Shown piece after piece: positions 1 through 5,913 of a DNA stretch of 5,913 nt. The stretch is taken from IMG/VR virus record IMGVR_UViG_2563366843_000008; one strand, given 5' to 3'. The DNA is from a virus. Taxonomy: Duplodnaviria > Heunggongvirae > Uroviricota > Caudoviricetes. The position numbers and the translations under genes are program-made. The stretch's first letter is position 1. Every line of letters begins with the position of its first letter. The notes below the pieces were generated by a model, which was not told where the DNA came from, searched no databases, and was given only the letters and a program-made list of their open reading frames with translations.

Positions 1-1005
1 GTCGGTCGGGCGAGCGATGATGCGGAAGGTTACCTGGATTTTTTCAAAGGCAAGATAACCGAATCCCATCTCGGCAAGGAGCTGCTGGAAAAAGTCGAGC
101 TGACGGAGGATAACGCCAGCAGACTGGAGGAGTTTTCGAAAGAGTGGAAGGACGCCAACGATAAATGGAATGCCATGTGGGGCGTCAAAATTGAGCAGAC
201 CAAAGACGGCAAACATTATGTCGCGGGGCTTGGCCTCAGCATGGAGGATACGGAGGAAGGCAAACTGAGCCAGTTCCTGGTTGCCGCTAACCGTATCGCG
301 TTTATTGACCCGGCAAACGGGAATGAAACGCCGATGTTTGTGGCGCAGGGCAACCAGATATTCATGAACGAAGTGTTCCTGAAGTATCTGACGGCTCCCA
401 CCATTACCAGCGGCGGTAATCCCCCGGCATTTTCCCTGACACCGGACGGGCGGCTGACGGCGAGAAATGCTGATATCAGCGGTAACGTGAATGCGAACTC
501 CGGGACGCTCAATAATGTCACGGTAAATGAAAACTGTACGATTAAGGGCATGCTGGAGGCGAACCAGGTCAGAGGTGACTTCGTTAAAACTGTATCCAAA
601 TCATTCCCGAAAAAGGCTGGTACGTGGGGTAACACGGAAACACCAAACGGGACGGTTACAGTCACCATTTACGATGATCATAACTTTGACCGCCAAATCA
701 TTATTCCGCCCATTATTTTTAACGGTGTGGCGTATGACGATCCGGGGAGCGGTAATAACCCGGGAGGTACGCGATACACGGGTTATGGTTTTGAAGTTCG
801 CAAAAATGGCGTATTAATCGCATCCAGAGAAACTAAAGGAGCCATTCCCGGTAGTTACAGTGCGGTTATTGATATGCCGAGTGGTGGTGGTAACGTCACT
901 CTGGAGTTTAAGATTTTCCAGAAAGGCAATCAGGGCGCAGGTAACATCACAGACTGTACGGTGATTGTGACCAAAAAAGCTGCTTCCGGTATCAGTATCC
1001 GTTGA
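1..1005 (+). CDS. J: Host specificity protein J-like central tail fibre, C-terminal portion (5'-partial; reading frame open from base 1)
   Basis: Frame 1 is open from position 1 to the TGA at 1003-1005. The translation (…[120 protein letters not shown]…) matches what I recall of the C-terminal third of phage lambda J. The last ~140 residues (from about [14 protein letters not shown]) no longer look like my recollection of lambda J. The ORF-track start at 175 is an internal Met. Confidence 0.88.
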
Positions 1006-1065: not shown

Positions 1066-3249
1066 ATGGCAGTACAGATTTCAGGTGTGCTGAAAGATGG
1101 TGCGGGAAAACCAATACAGAACTGCACTATTCAACTGAAGGCAAAGCGTAACAGCACCACGGTACTGGTGAACACGGTGGCCTCTGAAAATCCGGATGAA
1201 GCCGGGCGTTACAGCATGGATGTTGAGTATGGCCAGTACAGCGTTATCCTGCTTGTTGAAGGTTTTCCGCCTTCACATGCCGGAACCATTACCGTCTATG
1301 AAGGTTCCAGACCAGGTACGCTGAATGATTTTCTCGGTGCCATGACGGAAGATGATGTCATGCCGGAGGCATTGCGTCGTTTTGAGGAAATGGTGGAAGA
1401 AGCGGCACGCAACGCTGAAGCCGCCTCTCAGAGCGCAGCGGCGGCAAAGAAATCCGAAACTGCAGCGGCATCATCGAAGAACGCGGCGAAAACCTCAGAA
1501 ACGAATGCAGCTAACAGCGCACAGGCGGCAGCGGCCTTGCAGACTGCATCGGCAAACTCCGCAACAGCAGCTAAAAAATCAGAAACCAACGCGAAAAATA
1601 GCGAGACAGCCGCAAAGACGAGCGAAACCAACGCAAAGTCCAGCCAGACGGCAGCGAAGACCAGCGAAACGAATGCCAAAGCCAGTGAAACTGCGGCGAA
1701 AAGCAGTCAGGATGCAGCGGCTCAAAGCGAGAGTGCCGCAGCCAGTTCTGCAAGCGCGGCGGCTGCTTCTGCCACTGCATCAGCTAACAGTCAAAAAGCA
1801 GCAAAAACCAGTGAAACCAACGCAAAGGTGAGCGAAACAGCGGCTGCGAACTCAGCGAAAGCATCGGCAGCAAGCCAGACGGCAGCTAAAGCAAGCGAAG
1901 ATGCAGCCAGAGAGTACGCAAGCCAGGCTGCGGAGCCGTATAAATATGTCTTACAGCCGCTGCCTGATGTGTGGATACCATTTAACGATTCGCTGGATAT
2001 GATTACGGGCTTTTCGCCGTCATATAAAAAAATTGTTATTGGTGACGATGAAATAACGATGCCTGGCGACAAGATTGTTAAGTTTAAACGTGCATCGAAA
2101 GCAACCTATATTAACAAATCTGGTGTGCTGACAGAGGCTGCCATTGACGAGCCACGATTTGAACGTGATGGCCTGCTTATTGAGGGGCAAAGAACAAACT
2201 ACATGCTCAATTCGGAAAACCCTGCCAGTTGGGGGCGATCGTCAAATATGGATGTTCCCGAAACCGGGACGGATAGTTTTGGTTTTACCTATGGAAAGTT
2301 TGTCTGTAACGATTCTCTGATTGGGCAAACCTCAGCCATTAATATGGCATCAATTGCTGCAACAAAGTCAGTTGATGTCTCAGGCGATAATAAATACGTG
2401 ACAACCTCATGTCGTTTTAAAACAGAACTGCAGGTAAGGTTGCGTATCCGGTTTGATAAATATGACGGTAGCGCAACAACTTTTCTTGGTGATGCGTATA
2501 TTGATACACAAACGCTTGAAATTACTATGACAGGCGGTGCTGCCTCAAGGATTACTGCGAGAGTCAGAAAGGACGAAGCTACCGGATGGATTTTTGCAGA
2601 GGCAACAATTCAGGCAATTGATGGGGAGTTAAAAATAGGTTCTCAGATACAGTATTCTCCTAAGCAGGGCGGGGCAACCGTATCTGGTGACTATATTTAT
2701 CTGGCCACCCCACAAGTAGAAAATGGGCCTTGTGTATCATCTTTTATTATATCAGGAACGACGGCGGCGACCCGCGCAAGCGATATAGTTACAGTTCCCA
2801 TTAAGAATAATCTTTATAATCTTCCTTTTACGGTTCTTTGTGAGGTACATAAGAACTGGTATAAAACGCCAAATGCAGCGCCGCGTGTTTTTGACACCGG
2901 CGGTCATCAAACCGGAGCGGCTATTATTCTTGGCTTCGGTCGTTCAACAGATTACGACGGATTTCCTTATTGCGATATTGGAGGAGCTAACAGACGGGTA
3001 AACGAAAACGCATCGCTTGAAAAAATGGTTATGGGGATGCGTGTAAAGTCAGAGCAGTCTACGTGCTCAGTAAGTAACGGGCATATATCCAGCGAAACAA
3101 AAACCACATGGTCCTGTATTCAGAACACCGCAATTATCCGTATTGGAGGCCAGACTACAGCCGGGTTACGTCATTTATTTGGTCATGTCAGGAATTTCAG
3201 AATATGGCACAAGGCATTGACTGATGCTCAGGTGGGGGAGTCAATCTAA
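1066..3249 (+). CDS. stf: Side tail fibre protein: lambda Stf-like N-terminal domain, phage tail-fibre repeats, and a C-terminal concanavalin A-like/LamG-type lectin domain
   Basis: ATG at 1066 follows GGAG at 1056-1059. The N-terminus (MAVQISGVLKDGAGKPIQNCTIQLKAKRNSTTVLVNTVASENPDEAGRYSMDVEYGQYSVILLVEGFPPSHAGTITVYEGSRPGTLNDFLGAMTEDD) closely resembles the lambda Stf N-terminus as I recall it. Residues ~125-275 are low-complexity A/S/T/K/E repeats (…AAKTSETNAKSSQTAAKTSETNAKASET…). The C-terminal ~430 aa are non-lambda and end in …GLRHLFGHVRNFRIWHKALTDAQVGESI, which fits the terminal strand motif of Laminin-G_3/concanavalin A-like domains (G-x-[IV]-x-x-[FV]-R-I-[WY]-x-[KR]-A-L-[ST]-x-x-[EQ]-[IV]). 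Confidence 0.88.
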   Translation: MAVQISGVLKDGAGKPIQNCTIQLKAKRNSTTVLVNTVASENPDEAGRYSMDVEYGQYSVILLVEGFPPSHAGTITVYEGSRPGTLNDFLGAMTEDDVMPEALRRFEEMVEEAARNAEAASQSAAAAKKSETAAASSKNAAKTSETNAANSAQAAAALQTASANSATAAKKSETNAKNSETAAKTSETNAKSSQTAAKTSETNAKASETAAKSSQDAAAQSESAAASSASAAAASATASANSQKAAKTSETNAKVSETAAANSAKASAASQTAAKASEDAAREYASQAAEPYKYVLQPLPDVWIPFNDSLDMITGFSPSYKKIVIGDDEITMPGDKIVKFKRASKATYINKSGVLTEAAIDEPRFERDGLLIEGQRTNYMLNSENPASWGRSSNMDVPETGTDSFGFTYGKFVCNDSLIGQTSAINMASIAATKSVDVSGDNKYVTTSCRFKTELQVRLRIRFDKYDGSATTFLGDAYIDTQTLEITMTGGAASRITARVRKDEATGWIFAEATIQAIDGELKIGSQIQYSPKQGGATVSGDYIYLATPQVENGPCVSSFIISGTTAATRASDIVTVPIKNNLYNLPFTVLCEVHKNWYKTPNAAPRVFDTGGHQTGAAIILGFGRSTDYDGFPYCDIGGANRRVNENASLEKMVMGMRVKSEQSTCSVSNGHISSETKTTWSCIQNTAIIRIGGQTTAGLRHLFGHVRNFRIWHKALTDAQVGESI
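1438..1890 (+). repeat. Degenerate tandem ~42-bp coding repeats (phage tail-fibre repeat region) inside stf
   Basis: Recurring 14-aa units such as AAKTSETNAKSSQT / AAKTSETNAKASET / AAKSSQDAAAQSES correspond to a ~42-nt DNA periodicity. This low-complexity stretch also produces the spurious overlapping ORFs on both strands (1352-1831 +, 1428-1679 -, 1571-1780 -, 1791-2072 -). Confidence 0.7.
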
Positions 3250-3539: not shown

Positions 3540-4580
3540 ATGGCTACATCGACAGTAATTCCTGATGACATCAAAACGCTAAAATCCGACGTTAGCAAAT
3601 TAAAAAACGATCAAGGAAGCTACGCAACAAAATTATATGTAGACAGCAAAGATGAAATCGTTGGTGACTGGTCTGCTTCATGGTATCAGCAGGTATTGCC
3701 AACTAGCGGAGCTATATTTGGGAGAAAACTCCGCTCAACTCACAGGACGGCAGGTGTTGAGGATGCGTATTGCGAACTATACCTCAAAAAATGGATAGAC
3801 AGTCCAGGTAACGCAATGGCGCGCCTTAACCTGAACGATAACGGGACAAACATTTGCTGGGACTTTACCAACCTTTATGGCGGTACGATGATTTTTCCCG
3901 GTGACAGCGGATACCTCAAAATGGGTAACTGCCTTATGTCATACAGCAAGCGTGGAAGTAACGCGCTTATTAAATTTGATTACACCGACACATTACAGAT
4001 CAAATATGCCAATCATGGGTCAACCATGACATTAAACACACAGGGAACCGCTTATGCTGGTGTTACTGCTCAATTGTGGGGCAACACCAGCCGTCCTGTT
4101 GTTTATGAAGTCGGTGTTGATGGTGGCGCTTATATGTTCTATGCGCAGAAAAATACCGATAACACCTATATGTTAAGCGTTAATGGTGCATGTCATGCCA
4201 CCGCATTTAACCAGCATTCCGACCGGGATCTGAAAGACAACATTCAGGTGATCGATAATGCAACCGACCGCATCCGTAAAATGAACGGCTATACATACAC
4301 GCTTAAAGAAAACGGTATGCCCTATGCTGGTGTCATTGCACAGGAAGCTCTGGAAGCAATCCCAGAAGTTGTAGGTTCCGCAATGAAATATCAGGACGGT
4401 GCAAGCGGATCGGAAGGTGAAGAAGGTGAACGTTATTACACAGTAGATTATTCTGGTGTTACTGGCTTGCTTGTTCAGGTAGCCAGAGAGTCAGACGACA
4501 GAATAACAGCACTGGAAGAAGAAAACGCAGAATTAAGACAAAGATTATCTGCAATTGAGGCGGCGCTTGCGTCTAAATAA
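3540..4580 (+). CDS. Tail fibre/tailspike-like protein (346 aa) with C-terminal intramolecular chaperone auto-processing domain (peptidase S74-like)
   Basis: SD GAGGA (3529-3533) sits 6 nt before the ATG at 3540. The C-terminal region contains …ACHATAFNQH-S227-DRDL-K232-DNIQVIDNATDRIRKMNGYTYTL…GVIAQEALEAIPEVV… and ends in a heptad-like helix (RITALEEENAELRQRLSAIEAALASK). The S-x4-K spacing, with Ser codon TCC at 4218-4220 and Lys codon AAA at 4233-4235, matches the catalytic Ser/Lys dyad of endosialidase-type intramolecular chaperone domains (K1F endoNF, T5 pb1). The stop codon is TAA at 4578-4580. Confidence 0.8.
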   Translation: MATSTVIPDDIKTLKSDVSKLKNDQGSYATKLYVDSKDEIVGDWSASWYQQVLPTSGAIFGRKLRSTHRTAGVEDAYCELYLKKWIDSPGNAMARLNLNDNGTNICWDFTNLYGGTMIFPGDSGYLKMGNCLMSYSKRGSNALIKFDYTDTLQIKYANHGSTMTLNTQGTAYAGVTAQLWGNTSRPVVYEVGVDGGAYMFYAQKNTDNTYMLSVNGACHATAFNQHSDRDLKDNIQVIDNATDRIRKMNGYTYTLKENGMPYAGVIAQEALEAIPEVVGSAMKYQDGASGSEGEEGERYYTVDYSGVTGLLVQVARESDDRITALEEENAELRQRLSAIEAALASK

Positions 4581-4586
4581 TATTAA

Positions 4587-4609
4587 GGGGCCGAGCGCCC
4601 CGTTTTATT
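4587..4609 (+). terminator. Rho-independent terminator closing the stf-orf93-orf346 unit
   Basis: GC stem GGGGC (4587-4591) / GCCCC (4597-4601) with loop CGAGC, then GTTTTATT; it begins 7 nt after the orf346 stop. Confidence 0.65.
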
Positions 4610-4622
4610 GGGTAGGATGAAA

Positions 4623-4916
4623 ATGGATATAACACCTTTCCTTCATGCGCTTTGTGCTGTGGCTGCGCAGGTACTGGTTGGTCTTTTTACCGGGAACTGG
4701 GCTTACGGAGCGATAGCCGGTTGTACGTTCTTCATTGCGCGTGAACACACCCAGGCAGAATATCGCTGGATTGAAATGTTCGGGCATGGCAAGCGTATGA
4801 ATATGCCGTGGTGGGGTGGTTTTGATCCGCGCGTGTGGGATATGGCAAGCCTGGTGGATTTTGCTGTGCCGGTGGTGGCGTGTCTGCTGATCTGGCTGTT
4901 GGTTAATCACGGGTGA
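4623..4916 (+). CDS. Small hydrophobic protein (~97 aa), predicted inner-membrane protein with 2-3 transmembrane segments; function unknown
   Basis: The ORF is open from 4608 (TTG) to the TGA at 4914-4916. In-frame ATGs lie at 4617 and 4623, and AGGA at 4614-4617 gives a 5-nt spacer to the ATG at 4623. Hydrophobic stretches FLHALCAVAAQVLVGLFTG, AYGAIAGCTFFIA and LVDFAVPVVACLLIWLLV are separated by a charged/aromatic loop (REHTQAEYRWIEMFGHGKRMNMPWWGGFDPRVWD). The exact start is uncertain. Confidence 0.55.
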   Translation: MDITPFLHALCAVAAQVLVGLFTGNWAYGAIAGCTFFIAREHTQAEYRWIEMFGHGKRMNMPWWGGFDPRVWDMASLVDFAVPVVACLLIWLLVNHG

Positions 4917-5072
4917 AAAAGGTGAGCTGTAAATGTCGGAGGAAGAACCATCATTGTTGGCGTGGAAGAAGTATTTGTGTTGTTGAATCATGGTCAGCGG
5001 GAGATGAAGGAAGAACTGAATAACTTGGAGGATTTGAAGTCGATACGAATGTTAAGTATTGAATAATGAATA

Positions 5073-5094
5073 AACCGCGATGAGCGGTTTTTTT
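5073..5094 (+). terminator. Rho-independent terminator (+ strand)
   Basis: Stem AACCGC (5073-5078) / GCGGTT (5084-5089), loop GATGA, followed by a T7 run (through 5094). Confidence 0.6.
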
Positions 5095-5108
5095 GTACCT
5101 GAAAAATG

Positions 5109-5138
5109 AAAGCCCGGCTGCGTCAACAGTCGGGCTTT
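5109..5138. terminator. Bidirectional intrinsic terminator-like hairpin
   Basis: A 12-bp stem AAAGCCCGGCTG (5109-5120) / CAGTCGGGCTTT (5127-5138, with one G-U pair) and loop CGTCAA. It is flanked by an A-run upstream and a T-run downstream, so either strand reads hairpin plus U-tract. It could terminate the convergent minus-strand gene and any + strand read-through. Confidence 0.5.
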
Positions 5139-5349
5139 TAGCTTTTGATAATTGCGAGTTCTAATATGGAGGTCTTCCGTGTTCAATTTTAGCGGAGGAG
5201 ACTGGATAGTGAAAGCCCTAAAATTACTGGCAAGAAGCCGAAGATTACGCCAGATTTATTATTCCACATTAGTTGCTGCGCTGATATATGCCCTGATACG
5301 TTCCCCCCGTATTGGTTGAGTTGGTAAAACTATACGGGAATTAATAAAA

Positions 5350-5913
5350 TCAGAGTCGCATCAATCGTTCCACCAGTTGTTCTTTACGGGCAACGATCCA
5401 GCCGTGTTGCTCCAGATAAAATTTAAACCGCTCCAGAGTGCATACCATCGCATCGGCGGGGACTTTTTCCGTGAACTCGACCTGACCGTGTTTATCGAAG
5501 TGGATCAGTAATGTGCATCCATTATTTTCGTTGAGGGAGTTTTGTGCTGCTGGTGGTTGTTTTTGGCTGAAATAACAGTCTTCGAGTTTTTCGAACACTT
5601 CCCACGCCTGATCGGTTTCGAGCATTTTTGCGTGGCGAGCTGCCCCGCGTTCTGTCCATAGGATGAGGGAGCGGGCTTTGGGAGATATGGGGTTTTGTGA
5701 CTTACTTAAAGTAAGTCGCAAATTTTTTAATTCTTCACCCGATGCTTTAAAAAAGTGCTTTCCTTCGACAAAACGCTCTTTGTTTCTGGTGAAGTTAACC
5801 TGGATATTCTGAATTTCGGTGCCATAAAGCTGCGCCAAAAGTTCAGTGGTAATAACAGGAATCTGGTTATGGGTGATCGGGGAGAGAGTTTCAACAGAGA
5901 TTTGAGTGGCCAT
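5350..5913 (-). CDS. ORF6N-domain (KilAC/antirepressor-like) DNA-binding protein; start lies at the window edge and may be 5'-truncated
   Basis: The minus-strand ORF ends at a TGA (reverse complement of 5350-5352). The N-terminal ~100 aa (…IPVITTELLAQLYGTEIQNIQVNFTRNKERFVEGKHFFKASGEELKNLRLT…ARSLILWTERGAARHAKMLETDQAWEVFEKL…) follow the ORF6N pattern as I recall it (LA-LYG-E…RN-ERF-E…F…EEL … TE-G-A…L…A--V). The C-terminal ~80 aa are unrecognised. The Met codon is the reverse complement of the last three bases of the window. Confidence 0.7.
   Translation of the reverse strand: MATQISVETLSPITHNQIPVITTELLAQLYGTEIQNIQVNFTRNKERFVEGKHFFKASGEELKNLRLTLSKSQNPISPKARSLILWTERGAARHAKMLETDQAWEVFEKLEDCYFSQKQPPAAQNSLNENNGCTLLIHFDKHGQVEFTEKVPADAMVCTLERFKFYLEQHGWIVARKEQLVERLMRL

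Follow-up and report, generated by a model that had tools for sequence, protein, structure and literature searches.

At the tail-fibre end of a lambdoid Escherichia coli prophage we found a gene for a small, predicted membrane protein, which is preceded by a bidirectional terminator and overlapped by a putative antisense promoter and RNA; with somewhat better than even confidence, we read this set of elements as a type I toxin-antitoxin-like arrangement lying amid tail-fibre debris. Comparison with relatives establishes the coding gene, its frameshift in this copy, the terminators and a constraint that acts at the nucleotide level.

The window (the whole stretch of DNA analysed, 5,913 nucleotides) is an exact piece of scaffold KB733135.1 of GCA_000352705.1 (locus L057), and its sequence identifies the region as a mosaic junction in a prophage inserted near yciE/trpA. 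The prophage looks degraded, with the J gene split in the source contig. An earlier note, made from the letters alone, had described 4917-5349 as an intergenic region with two intrinsic terminators and micro-ORFs preceded by Shine-Dalgarno (SD) motifs. Every sequence feature that it listed was found in place, and both of its terminator hairpins were recovered by a terminator scan (5072-5090 with a T-run, and 5107-5140), which across 4500-5913 gave 6 terminator-like sites against 1.8 +/- 1.3 in shuffles. Its statement that the region lacks a long open reading frame (ORF) holds only loosely, because the frame of the 36-aa ORF is open from TTG 5152 (55 codons). The features of the region are listed below.

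4920..4986, plus strand: micro-ORF 1, with AGGTGAG at 4920-4926 and ATG 4933 to TGA 4984-4986, encoding MSEEEPSLLAWKKYLCC; a tfa relic by alignment
4987..5066, plus strand: DUF4376 relic, the last ~26 codons (..NHGQREMKEELNNLEDLKSIRMLSIE*) and the stop, identified by blastn, alignment and frame translation
5072..5097, plus strand: terminator 1, hairpin 5072-5090 (AAACCGCGATGAGCGGTTT) and T-run, from the terminator scan
5101..5146, both strands: terminator 2, bidirectional, stem-loop 5107-5140 with an A-run before and a T-run after
5101..5180, minus strand: predicted cis-antisense RNA of ~80 nt, from the promoter-terminator geometry, with a sequence that complements the 5' leader, SD1 and start codon of the small gene
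5123..5152, plus strand: weak sigma-70-like promoter, TCAACA-18-GATAAT, 9/12 matches, which could start the small-gene mRNA near 5159
5168..5172, plus strand: SD1, GGAGG, 6 nt 5' of GTG 5179, read from the sequence
5179..5319, plus strand: small membrane-protein gene, frameshifted allele, VFNFSGGDWIVKALKLLARSRRLRQIYYSTLVAALIYALIRSPRIG*, 46 codons, from the family search and pN/pS
5186..5213, minus strand: predicted sigma-70 promoter of the antisense RNA, -35 TTCACT (5213 to 5208), 16-nt spacer, -10 TAAAAT (5191 to 5186), from a promoter scan
5194..5211, plus strand: internal SD-like GGAGGAG (5194-5200) and GTG 5209, the GTG being codon 11 of the family protein
5303..5308, plus strand: C6 homopolymer, one extra C compared with relatives, giving a +1 frameshift
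5320..5344, plus strand: last part of the reading frame of intact alleles, shifted out of frame in the window, stop TAA 5342-5344
5350..5913, minus strand: ORF6N-domain gene (antirepressor-like), Pfam ORF6N E 2e-22, convergent with the small gene

By alignment, 4917-5066 is gene debris, in which a 3' relic of tfa runs into what remains of a DUF4376 gene, its last 26 codons, and the conserved module comprises what follows from 5101 onward, namely the bidirectional terminator (5107-5140), a short leader and the small membrane-protein gene. Micro-ORF 1, once offered as a possible gene, is according to the same comparison a decayed in-frame remnant of a lambda-type tail-fibre-assembly gene (tfa), from its 3' end. 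In an alignment of this segment, three indels (2, 3 and 1 nt) set the window apart from E. coli loci L051-L054 and phages 2G7b, HannyBb and 21; those relatives contain a 32-aa stretch with 100% identity to lambda Tfa, and the window retains EE.PSLL.AWKKY of the Tfa C-terminal region despite its indels. The micro-ORF peptide itself is not conserved in these relatives, which from the conserved ATG would yield another one, MQRRKKPRCWKPGRSIGCC. Rfam family IS009 (RF02111) scored 25-27 bits over 4897-5005 against a gathering score of 117, and only its tfa-relic part aligned. The mosaic has its left junction at about 4987, and the DNA identifies 4987..5066 as the tail of a deleted tail-fibre-associated gene of the DUF4376 family (PF14301): blastn matches begin at query position 71 under genes annotated 'DUF4376 domain-containing protein' in E. 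coli E9 and SE11, they are collinear with the 3' end of the DUF4376 gene at 83-85% from that position onward, and the intact E9 gene matches Pfam DUF4376.

The second micro-ORF of the earlier note, running from GTG 5209 to TGA 5317-5319 and encoding 36 aa (VKALKLLARSRRLRQIYYSTLVAALIYALIRSPRIG), proved to be the 3' part of the gene at 5179..5319. Homologues were gathered by leader DNA pattern, codon pattern and protein HMM, and they form an unnamed family of ~49-57 aa in Enterobacterales prophages with the layout MNFxxGxWIV(K/E)AL..LRRMYY followed by a transmembrane helix. Fifteen divergent lineages were obtained, from E. coli, Salmonella, Sodalis and metagenomes, and the motif MNFxxGxWIV persists in the distant relatives, where the DNA has diverged. 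Values of pN/pS were 0.15-0.35 in the small-gene frame only, the other two frames giving 0.5-3, and 11 synonymous versus 7 non-synonymous changes separated the pair L058/L001 (p = 0.0018), with 18 versus 8 for the pair L004/L005 (p = 3e-6). These comparisons identify the small gene as a real coding sequence under purifying selection, and because of such conserved homologues the 36-aa ORF lies far beyond chance.

The allele in the window is frameshifted. A run of five C together with an intact 54-aa ORF is present in 6 of the 8 near-identical loci (L058-L061, L063 and L064), the C6 run being found in the window source (L057) and in L062, and deletion of one C from the window run restores ..IRSPVLVELVKLYGN*. 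The extra C probably impairs the window copy. Disrupted copies of the small gene are frequent (the window, SE11, L003, L020 and L024). The TAA of the intact frame (5342-5344) sits 5 nt from the stop codon of the ORF6N gene.

In the intact 54-aa protein, a hydrophobic core (Kyte-Doolittle ~2.0) and a basic N-terminal side give hydropathy and charge that fit a membrane protein, and AlphaFold2 modeled three helices (8-19, 21-41 and 43-52) with a mean pLDDT of 74. The product is predicted to be an inner-membrane protein of ~54 aa in which an amphipathic helix at the N-terminus is followed by a single transmembrane helix and then by a short C-terminal one. The 36-aa membrane peptide proposed before was right as to a small membrane protein in a conserved frame, but it was misdelimited, being a frameshift-truncated allele of the 54-aa protein. 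No Pfam, NCBIfam or PADLOC model, known type I toxin families included, matched the small protein at E up to 1; tblastn and blastn searches of 50,697 deposited phage genomes returned no relative of the gene, and neither of two leader patterns had a match in the GTDB representative genomes. In protein databases the family is represented by only 8 clusters among 5.8 billion proteins, with most copies unannotated, and one Sodalis genome carries three copies. The L071 protein matches phrog_23357 (PHROGs, unknown function) end to end with E 1.7e-5 and the L072 protein does so weakly; the E. coli types, including the window-type protein, gave no match to it.

Two translation starts can be read in this gene. 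GTG 5179 is the likely start, and we favor it because the family N-terminus MNFxxGxWIV points there; proteins of the distant relatives begin MNF, an SD-like motif precedes this upstream start in 14 of the 15 lineages, and the start has been kept through a GTG-to-ATG change and a one-codon shift, the indels in the extension being multiples of 3. GTG 5209 with GGAGGAG, taken before as the ORF start, has its motif there and conserved, but it is an internal codon of the family protein. GGAG(A/G), 8-9 nt and then GTG are kept in 14/15 lineages, and the motif makes use of the glycine codon GGA, which is rare in E. coli; GTG 5209 is a possible second start that would give a 44-aa form in intact alleles. 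Across lineages, codon identity among same-residue pairs reaches 87% in codons 3-15 versus 30-35% in the rest of the gene, and this constraint also holds in lineages found only by protein search. Codons 3-15 coincide with both the minus-strand TTCAC(A/T)-16-TAAAAT promoter and the internal SD and GTG, and the most conserved codons (AAT 100%, TTT 82%, GTG 100% and AAA/GAA 100%) match the -10 and -35 hexamers, not the SD. The internal start region alone could also explain the synonymous-site constraint, without any contribution from the antisense promoter. A leader hairpin that would sequester the internal SD (UCUUCCGU/GCGGAGGA) was rejected: RNAfold predicts it in the E. coli types with an energy that does not improve on shuffles (z of -0.6 to +0.5), and the pairing partner is absent in distant lineages.

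Upstream of the gene, terminator 1 (5072-5090), which the scan called on both strands, is the terminator of the lost DUF4376 gene and ends that relic. Terminators 1 and 2 are kept together in E9, SE11, Oki1678 and a Sodalis prophage (L067). For terminator 2 the scan called only the plus strand in the window, and the minus-strand reading (the stem, then CATTTTTC) was taken from the sequence; counterparts in L004 and L071 were called on both strands. A hairpin of this layout, with an A-run before and a T-run after, stands 40-80 nt 5' of the start codon in all 15 lineages, and its stem shows compensatory changes between them. Terminator 2 is the left edge of the small-gene module and the predicted 3' end of both the antisense RNA and the ORF6N operon transcript; no minus-strand terminator was called by the scan between 5349 and 5141. 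Since A-tracts are common upstream of strong terminators, the bidirectional shape of the hairpin is no proof of a minus-strand RNA.

The predicted minus-strand promoter overlaps codons 3-12 of the small gene, where synonymous sites are exactly conserved. In L004, L066, L067, L071 and L072, TTCACA-16-TAAAAT (10/12) is the only or the top promoter call and occupies the same codon positions. We infer from this geometry an antisense RNA of ~80 nt (about 5180 to 5101) that would end at terminator 2; equivalent RNAs of about 60-95 nt are predicted in 14/15 lineages, and the body of the RNA, hairpin aside, is not conserved between lineages. The lineage that is without the minus-strand -10 (L033 type) is also without SD1 and has a poor minus-strand U-tract. 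On the plus strand, the site at 5123..5152 is not conserved and the scan called no promoter in L004, L066, L067, L071 and L072; most lineages have no convincing plus-strand promoter between the hairpin and the start, which leaves the target mRNA of the antisense RNA undefined.

The candidate small RNA plausibly lies on the minus strand. A plus-strand sRNA ending at one of the terminators, as the earlier note had suggested, is not borne out: 5040-5140 consists of the DUF4376 gene tail and terminators, a covariance search of it for a conserved sRNA gave no Rfam family at threshold, and the sole promoter-like site (5040-5067) would start transcription inside terminator 1. We also rejected a minus-strand ORF of 44 codons (5186 to 5052), which passes through the hairpin and is not conserved. 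The antisense family ctRNA_pGA1 of Rfam gave a sub-threshold match.

In the arrangement that we favor, the first 12 codons would carry two superimposed signals, the internal SD and GTG and, on the opposite strand, the sigma-70 promoter. That promoter would make the ~80-nt RNA across the start codon and SD1, stopping at the bidirectional terminator, and the RNA would repress translation of the membrane protein; transcripts reading through at the 3' end of the ORF6N antirepressor operon, which converges on the gene and is controlled by IsrK/C4, would be antisense to all of it and would strengthen the repression. What we infer from these sequence patterns is the existence of the antisense RNA, repression by it and whatever toxicity the peptide may have. 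More tentatively, and with doubt clearly outweighing belief, these elements may constitute a new type I toxin-antitoxin-like family of Enterobacterales prophage late regions, in which a ~54-aa peptide with hok/mok-like coupled dual starts would be silenced by an ~80-nt cis-antisense RNA that has its promoter in the first 12 codons and shares its terminator with the upstream late operon, with extra control here by read-through of the IsrK/C4 operon.

Among known type I modules, Ldr/Rdl, ZorO/OrzO (PMC3919570) and hok/mok/sok encode the antitoxin RNA opposite the 5' leader of the toxin. Similar to these, the present module combines a membrane peptide of < 60 residues, a predicted ~80-nt antisense RNA over the SD and start codon that ends at an intrinsic terminator, and two in-frame starts resembling the mok/hok coupling, and it is usually unannotated, lies on mobile elements and can be present in several copies per genome. 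Unlike them, it would have its antisense promoter inside the first 12 codons and an antisense terminator that doubles as the upstream late-operon terminator, and some family members are translationally coupled to structural phage genes. The type I toxin-like build, remarked on before from the peptide, gains support from the conserved, predicted antisense promoter and terminator; unlike the type I toxins, however, the protein has no sequence similarity to any known toxin family, and its toxin role is here a prediction from sequence.

A second parallel is P22 sar, an antisense RNA of ~69 nt whose promoter lies at the 5' end of its target gene (ant) and which crosses the ribosome-binding site of the target and stops at a hairpin. 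The Rfam sar model (RF00262) can be aligned over its full length to the predicted RNA (5171 to 5104), and, as in P22 immI, several family members adjoin Arc/Mnt-antirepressor (immI-like) modules. Homology with sar was rejected, because the window reaches 21.6 bits where the gathering score is 43, and because the strand varies between loci (22-27 bits elsewhere, often on the other strand). In other loci the model matches the palindromic hairpin on the plus strand, so that the likeness is essentially in the terminator; unlike that of sar, the target here would be a small membrane protein, not an antirepressor.

Morons are extra genes inserted inside late operons, dual-start holins yield two products from nearby starts, and HK97 gp15 (superinfection exclusion) and the lambda holins S105/S107 are small single-pass or helical membrane proteins. 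The small protein is predicted to resemble HK97 gp15 and S105/S107 in build, placement and a plausible dual start, without homology to them, and it may be an ordinary, non-toxic accessory membrane protein of the moron type, serving for example superinfection exclusion or the modulation of lysis or of a host membrane protein. On this explanation, which we count as possible but would not expect to be correct, the two conserved starts would yield two forms and translation of the shorter one would be initiated in codons 3-15; the hairpin would act only as an insulating terminator, and the module would lack an antisense RNA of its own. It accounts for the GGAG-N8-9-GTG that 14 of the 15 lineages keep within the otherwise unconstrained spacer of the minus-strand promoter, and for the internal SD and GTG (SD2 and GTG2) still kept by the L033-type lineage, which is without that promoter. 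The family is also placed as morons classically are: some members separate gpV-like from gpW-like genes or endolysin from Rz, and others follow tail-fibre genes or adjoin Arc/Mnt-antirepressor modules. In types B and D the small-gene stop codon overlaps the ATG of the gpW-like baseplate gene and the two are translationally coupled, and type E, one lineage and the only one in a lysis cassette, has the gene between a SAR-type endolysin and Rz; placement in these three types is as compatible with an accessory protein expressed late as it is with a toxin. With respect to moron criteria, the terminator lies upstream of the small gene, not downstream, and the plus-strand promoter is weak or absent. 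As for a holin, the small protein has no holin Pfam match and most members lie outside lysis cassettes. The explanation is opposed by the fit of the strongest codon conservation to the -10 and -35 hexamers rather than the SD, by the minus-strand U-tract after the hairpin, which is retained even in L004, where all neighbors are on the plus strand, and by the joint loss of SD1, -10 and U-tract in one lineage.

The functional product might instead be a minus-strand RNA, either a 3'-UTR-derived sRNA or one with its own promoter, at the end of the isrK-C4-ORF6N operon, the plus-strand ORF being incidental. The model for this is Gifsy-1, where IsrJ and IsrI occupy the corresponding intergenic region after anrP, on the antirepressor strand, and one full-length transcript spans isrK-orf45-anrP-isrJ (PMC2330248, PMC4825925); IsrI of Gifsy-1 itself carries an ORF. 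In the source contig the IsrK, c4-a1b1 and C4 RNAs, all above their Rfam gathering scores, are directly upstream of ORF6N, and like IsrJ/IsrI the window module is flanked by a plus-strand late gene on one side and, on the other, by the 3' end of an antirepressor operon under IsrK control, with a promoter and a terminator predicted on the minus strand. We nevertheless judge such an RNA improbable as the main product, since the conserved entity here, unlike IsrJ/IsrI, is a plus-strand protein gene, with a frame under purifying selection and protein motifs that outlast DNA divergence; moreover, the module is found in many contexts without an adjacent antirepressor operon, and only the hairpin of the predicted RNA is conserved. 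Homology to isrJ/isrI was rejected as well: Rfam gave no match to either at E up to 10 in 4900-5400, and blastn of the region brought up neither a Salmonella nor a Gifsy phage, nor any DNA likeness to phages of the Gifsy type. Least credible of all is that nothing here functions, both micro-ORFs having arisen by chance in debris that recombination left at a prophage end and the hairpins being terminators left behind. This is true of 4917-5066, with its tfa and DUF4376 relics, and it is in keeping with the frameshifted small-gene copy and with a degraded prophage whose J gene is split; for the family, however, it is already contradicted by the homologues of the second ORF in 15 lineages, their pN/pS and their conserved motifs, and intact alleles predominate among the close relatives of the window.

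Small membrane proteins and antisense regulators are routinely missed by annotation, and the 'intergenic' ends of prophages mix gene debris with real micro-genes, which comparative codon analysis separates. In the family that we describe, one compact stretch of DNA would both code for a protein and hold the promoter for the RNA that probably regulates it in antisense. Should the peptide turn out to be toxic or to exclude phages, it would represent a new prophage-borne module beside antirepressor switches (IsrK/C4, Arc/Mnt), which govern the choice between lysogeny and induction.

The 36-aa ORF which an earlier note had read as a possible small membrane peptide is the 3' portion, cut short in this allele, of a conserved gene for a small membrane protein. 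All coordinates of that note proved exact on re-reading the sequence, and its observation was confirmed; of its interpretation, the two intrinsic terminators and the coding character of the 36-aa ORF stood, while micro-ORF 1 turned out to be a relic and the second ORF to be truncated.

Features of the studied region and its 3' neighbor
4920-4926, plus strand, SD-like AGGTGAG (sequence)
ATG 4933 to TGA 4986, plus strand, micro-ORF 1, MSEEEPSLLAWKKYLCC (sequence)
5072-5090 and 5107-5140, hairpins (consensus terminator scan)
5194-5200, plus strand, internal SD-like GGAGGAG (sequence)
GTG 5209 to TGA 5319, plus strand, 36-aa ORF (sequence)
5913 to 5350, minus strand, ORF6N-domain gene, on the 3' side
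L057 7748-7949, just beyond window position 5913, isrK/c4-a1b1/C4 array directly 5' of the ORF6N gene; also at L001 4971-5169, 5' of an ORF6N/Rha gene

Scaffold KB733135.1 of E. coli assembly GCA_000352705.1 (locus L057) contains the window as an exact piece, which is the tail-fibre end of a lambdoid prophage adjoining yciE/yciF/trpA. The studied region is preceded, in order, by a J C-terminal piece, a side tail fibre, a 93-aa ORF, a tail fibre with a Peptidase_S74 chaperone domain, and a 97-aa membrane protein (4623-4916; two transmembrane helices; phrog_1443, unknown function). The last ends the tail-fibre cluster, a position kept in phage 21 and many lambdoid phages, and the cargo 3' of its gene is very variable (sitABCD, invertase, methyltransferase, AraC/omptin). 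In the 727-aa side tail fibre, a long Ala/Ser/Thr/Lys-rich repeat (..SETNAK..AAKTSETNA..; window 1400-1900) follows the phage_tail_N domain. The tail-tip gene J of the source contig (L057 12909-16225, with window 1-1005 as its end) is called as two pieces of 334 and 716 aa, so the prophage may be defective; J of the relatives is a single gene of ~1130-1160 aa.

The stretch 4917-5066 is gene debris. The 97-aa gene and the next ~70 nt are common to phages 2G7b, HannyBb, 21 and several E. coli prophages, in which this stretch encodes 32 residues with 100% identity to the C-terminal part of the lambda tail fibre assembly protein Tfa. Compared with these relatives, the window carries indels of 2, 3 and 1 nt, which happen to bring an ATG in frame with EEEPSLLAWKKY and then a stop; because the same conserved ATG opens a different peptide in the relatives, micro-ORF 1 is a relic, not a conserved gene. 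An Rfam IS009 match on the tfa relic is weak (27 bits vs a gathering score of 117). From ~4987 on, the window instead resembles the final ~26 codons of a DUF4376-family gene, of which E. coli E9 and SE11 keep intact copies; 4987-5066 is also a relic, and the first terminator belongs to this lost gene. Both hairpins were recovered by the consensus scan, and the region holds 6 terminator-like sites vs 1.8 +/- 1.3 in shuffles. The first hairpin was called on both strands and the second on the plus strand only, but the latter also reads as bidirectional, since CATTTTTC follows its minus-strand stem. Opposite the coding strand of ORF6N and inside that gene, the plus strand has a 13-bp hairpin and then TTTTTT (5694-5722), which could stop plus-strand transcripts leaving the small gene.

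Window positions 5101-5349 are collinear with E9, and part of them recurs in quite different prophage contexts. Homologues collected by a leader DNA pattern, a leader-independent degenerate-codon pattern and protein profile searches form a family of 15 divergent lineages (E. coli, Salmonella, Sodalis, metagenomes) sharing the motif M-(x)-N-F-x-x-G-(D/E)-W-(I/V)-V-(K/E)-A-L-x-L ... L-R-R-M-(Y/F)-Y, after which come a hydrophobic helix and a short stretch at the C-terminus. Substitutions show a strong synonymous bias in the small-gene frame only (11 synonymous vs 7 non-synonymous in the pair L058/L001, p = 0.0018; 18 vs 8 in L004/L005, p = 3e-6), with pN/pS of 0.5-3 in the other two frames, and we regard the family as very probably protein-coding. 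AlphaFold2 predicts helices at residues 8-19, 21-41 and 43-52 (mean pLDDT 74), and the hydropathy and charge profile agrees with a small protein of the inner membrane whose N-terminal side is basic. Pfam, NCBIfam and PADLOC hold no family for it, and no relative of the gene was found in 50,697 deposited phage genomes; only 8 clusters in a collection of 5.8 billion proteins, and 10 at 50% identity in 1.84 billion representatives, contain it, all 'hypothetical'. The single link to phrog_23357 (unknown function) runs via one distant family member.

The truncation comes from a frameshift. Among eight near-identical relatives of the window, six carry C5 at this run and encode 54 aa ending in ..IRSPVLVELVKLYGN, whereas the window and locus L062 have C6 (5303-5308 in the window), shifting the frame to ..IRSPRIG and a stop; other decayed copies occur in SE11, L003, L020 and L024. 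At the 5' end, GTG 5209 falls on codon 11 of the family protein. Every intact lineage keeps an in-frame start 9-12 codons upstream (GTG in nine, ATG in six; GTG 5179 in the window, with GGAGG at 5168-5172), which outlasts a GTG-to-ATG change and a one-codon shift, with extension indels in multiples of three and an SD-like motif before it in all lineages but one. The internal GGAG-N8-9-GTG is also kept in 14 of 15 lineages, with GGA, a rare glycine codon in E. coli, so that a second, shorter product from the internal start is plausible.

The small gene occupies accessory-gene positions inside late regions.

Genomic settings of the small gene
After DUF4376 or tail-fibre genes: window, E9, type F, Sodalis (next to int)
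Between a gpV-like and a gpW-like baseplate gene; in types B and D the small-gene stop overlaps the gpW-like ATG as ATGA
Between SAR-type endolysin and Rz-like spanin: type E (L033/L039)
After portal/MuF genes
Adjoining Arc/Mnt-Arc-Rha/KilA-N modules

In type E, 9 nt inserted in frame add TAH to the N-terminal extension. Sodalis GCA_039646275.1 carries three identical copies (L067, L068, L069), each after Lom and tail genes, two of them then followed by a convergent integrase, and all retaining a tandem of two terminators as in window 5072-5140. In a myovirus-like prophage family, the gpV-like to gpJ-like baseplate interval is a cargo hotspot (L004 3171-4828; L010, L016, L017, 3' of the small gene), including 'type I restriction endonuclease', AntA/Rha-like genes and a 179-aa exported protein. 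In L071 (3310-4785) and L072 (3758-5140), distant members lie directly 5' of a P22 immI-like unit, namely an Arc/Mnt-family gene on the minus strand and, beyond it on the plus strand, an Arc-family gene plus one for Rha or KilA-N; a PhdYeFM/YoeB toxin-antitoxin pair lies just 5' in L071.

The first codons seem to carry a second signal. Among residue-identical pairs, codon identity is 87% in alignment columns 3-15 vs 30-35% in the rest of the gene, a figure repeated in the six lineages found purely by protein search. The consensus here is AATTTTA......GGAGA.TGGATTGTG.AAGC, in which the least variable positions spell TTCAC(A/T)-16 nt-TAAAAT on the minus strand. The internal SD and GTG explain part of this constraint but not the AAT TTT codons. 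For L004, L066, L067, L071 and L072 the promoter scan gave this minus-strand site as its sole or top promoter-like match (10 of 12), and it called the site in the window too (9 of 12); the 5' end of the gene probably carries an antisense promoter. Transcription from it would start approximately at the start codon, run antisense over the upstream SD and leader, and then reach the upstream hairpin (5107-5140), whose stem shows compensatory changes and is preceded in every lineage by an A-run, which on the minus strand would give a U-tract. For the antisense RNA, a length of ~80 nt is predicted in the window (about 5180 to 5101) and one of 60-95 nt at other loci. The L033 type, the single lineage without the -10, also lacks the upstream SD and has a poor minus-strand U-tract, which suggests that the three features work together. 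On this comparative evidence, we give a dedicated antisense RNA about an even chance. Between hairpin and upstream SD, a palindrome CCTTG-N6-7-CAAGG in types B, C, E' and L073 (~60-110 nt 5' of the start in L004, L010, L017, types B-D) overlaps a weak plus-strand promoter, TTGAAT-18-TATGTT, and could be an operator or small stem-loop.

This layout resembles in design the type I toxin-antitoxin loci Ldr/Rdl, Zor/Orz and hok/mok/sok, with an RNA opposite the toxin leader, but the small protein has no homology to them. P22 sar/ant has a similar antisense arrangement; however, the Rfam sar model scores 21.6 bits in the window vs a threshold of 43, and at other loci its match to the palindromic hairpin falls on the opposite strand. 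Membership in either is therefore not established, and we consider it rather unlikely that the peptide is toxic, as a true type I system would have it.

The convergent neighbor can be assigned to a known switch. Directly 5' of the ORF6N/Rha gene, isrK (75.5 bits), c4-a1b1 (51.2 bits) and C4 antisense RNA (77.6 bits) all exceed Rfam gathering scores, and E9 carries the same array; the gene is thus the antirepressor of a P1-c4/Gifsy-1 IsrK-type switch, matching the arrangement isrK-orf45-anrP-isrJ of Gifsy-1 (PMC4825925). The equivalent intergenic region of Gifsy-1 encodes IsrJ and IsrI on the antirepressor strand (PMC2330248); neither Rfam model matches in the window, so this latter likeness is positional only. 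An intact small-gene frame in the window would stop 5 nt from the ORF6N stop codon. Because the terminator scan called no minus-strand terminator from 5349 to 5141, the ORF6N transcript should cross the whole small gene, and the antirepressor operon would thereby supply antisense read-through up to the bidirectional terminator.
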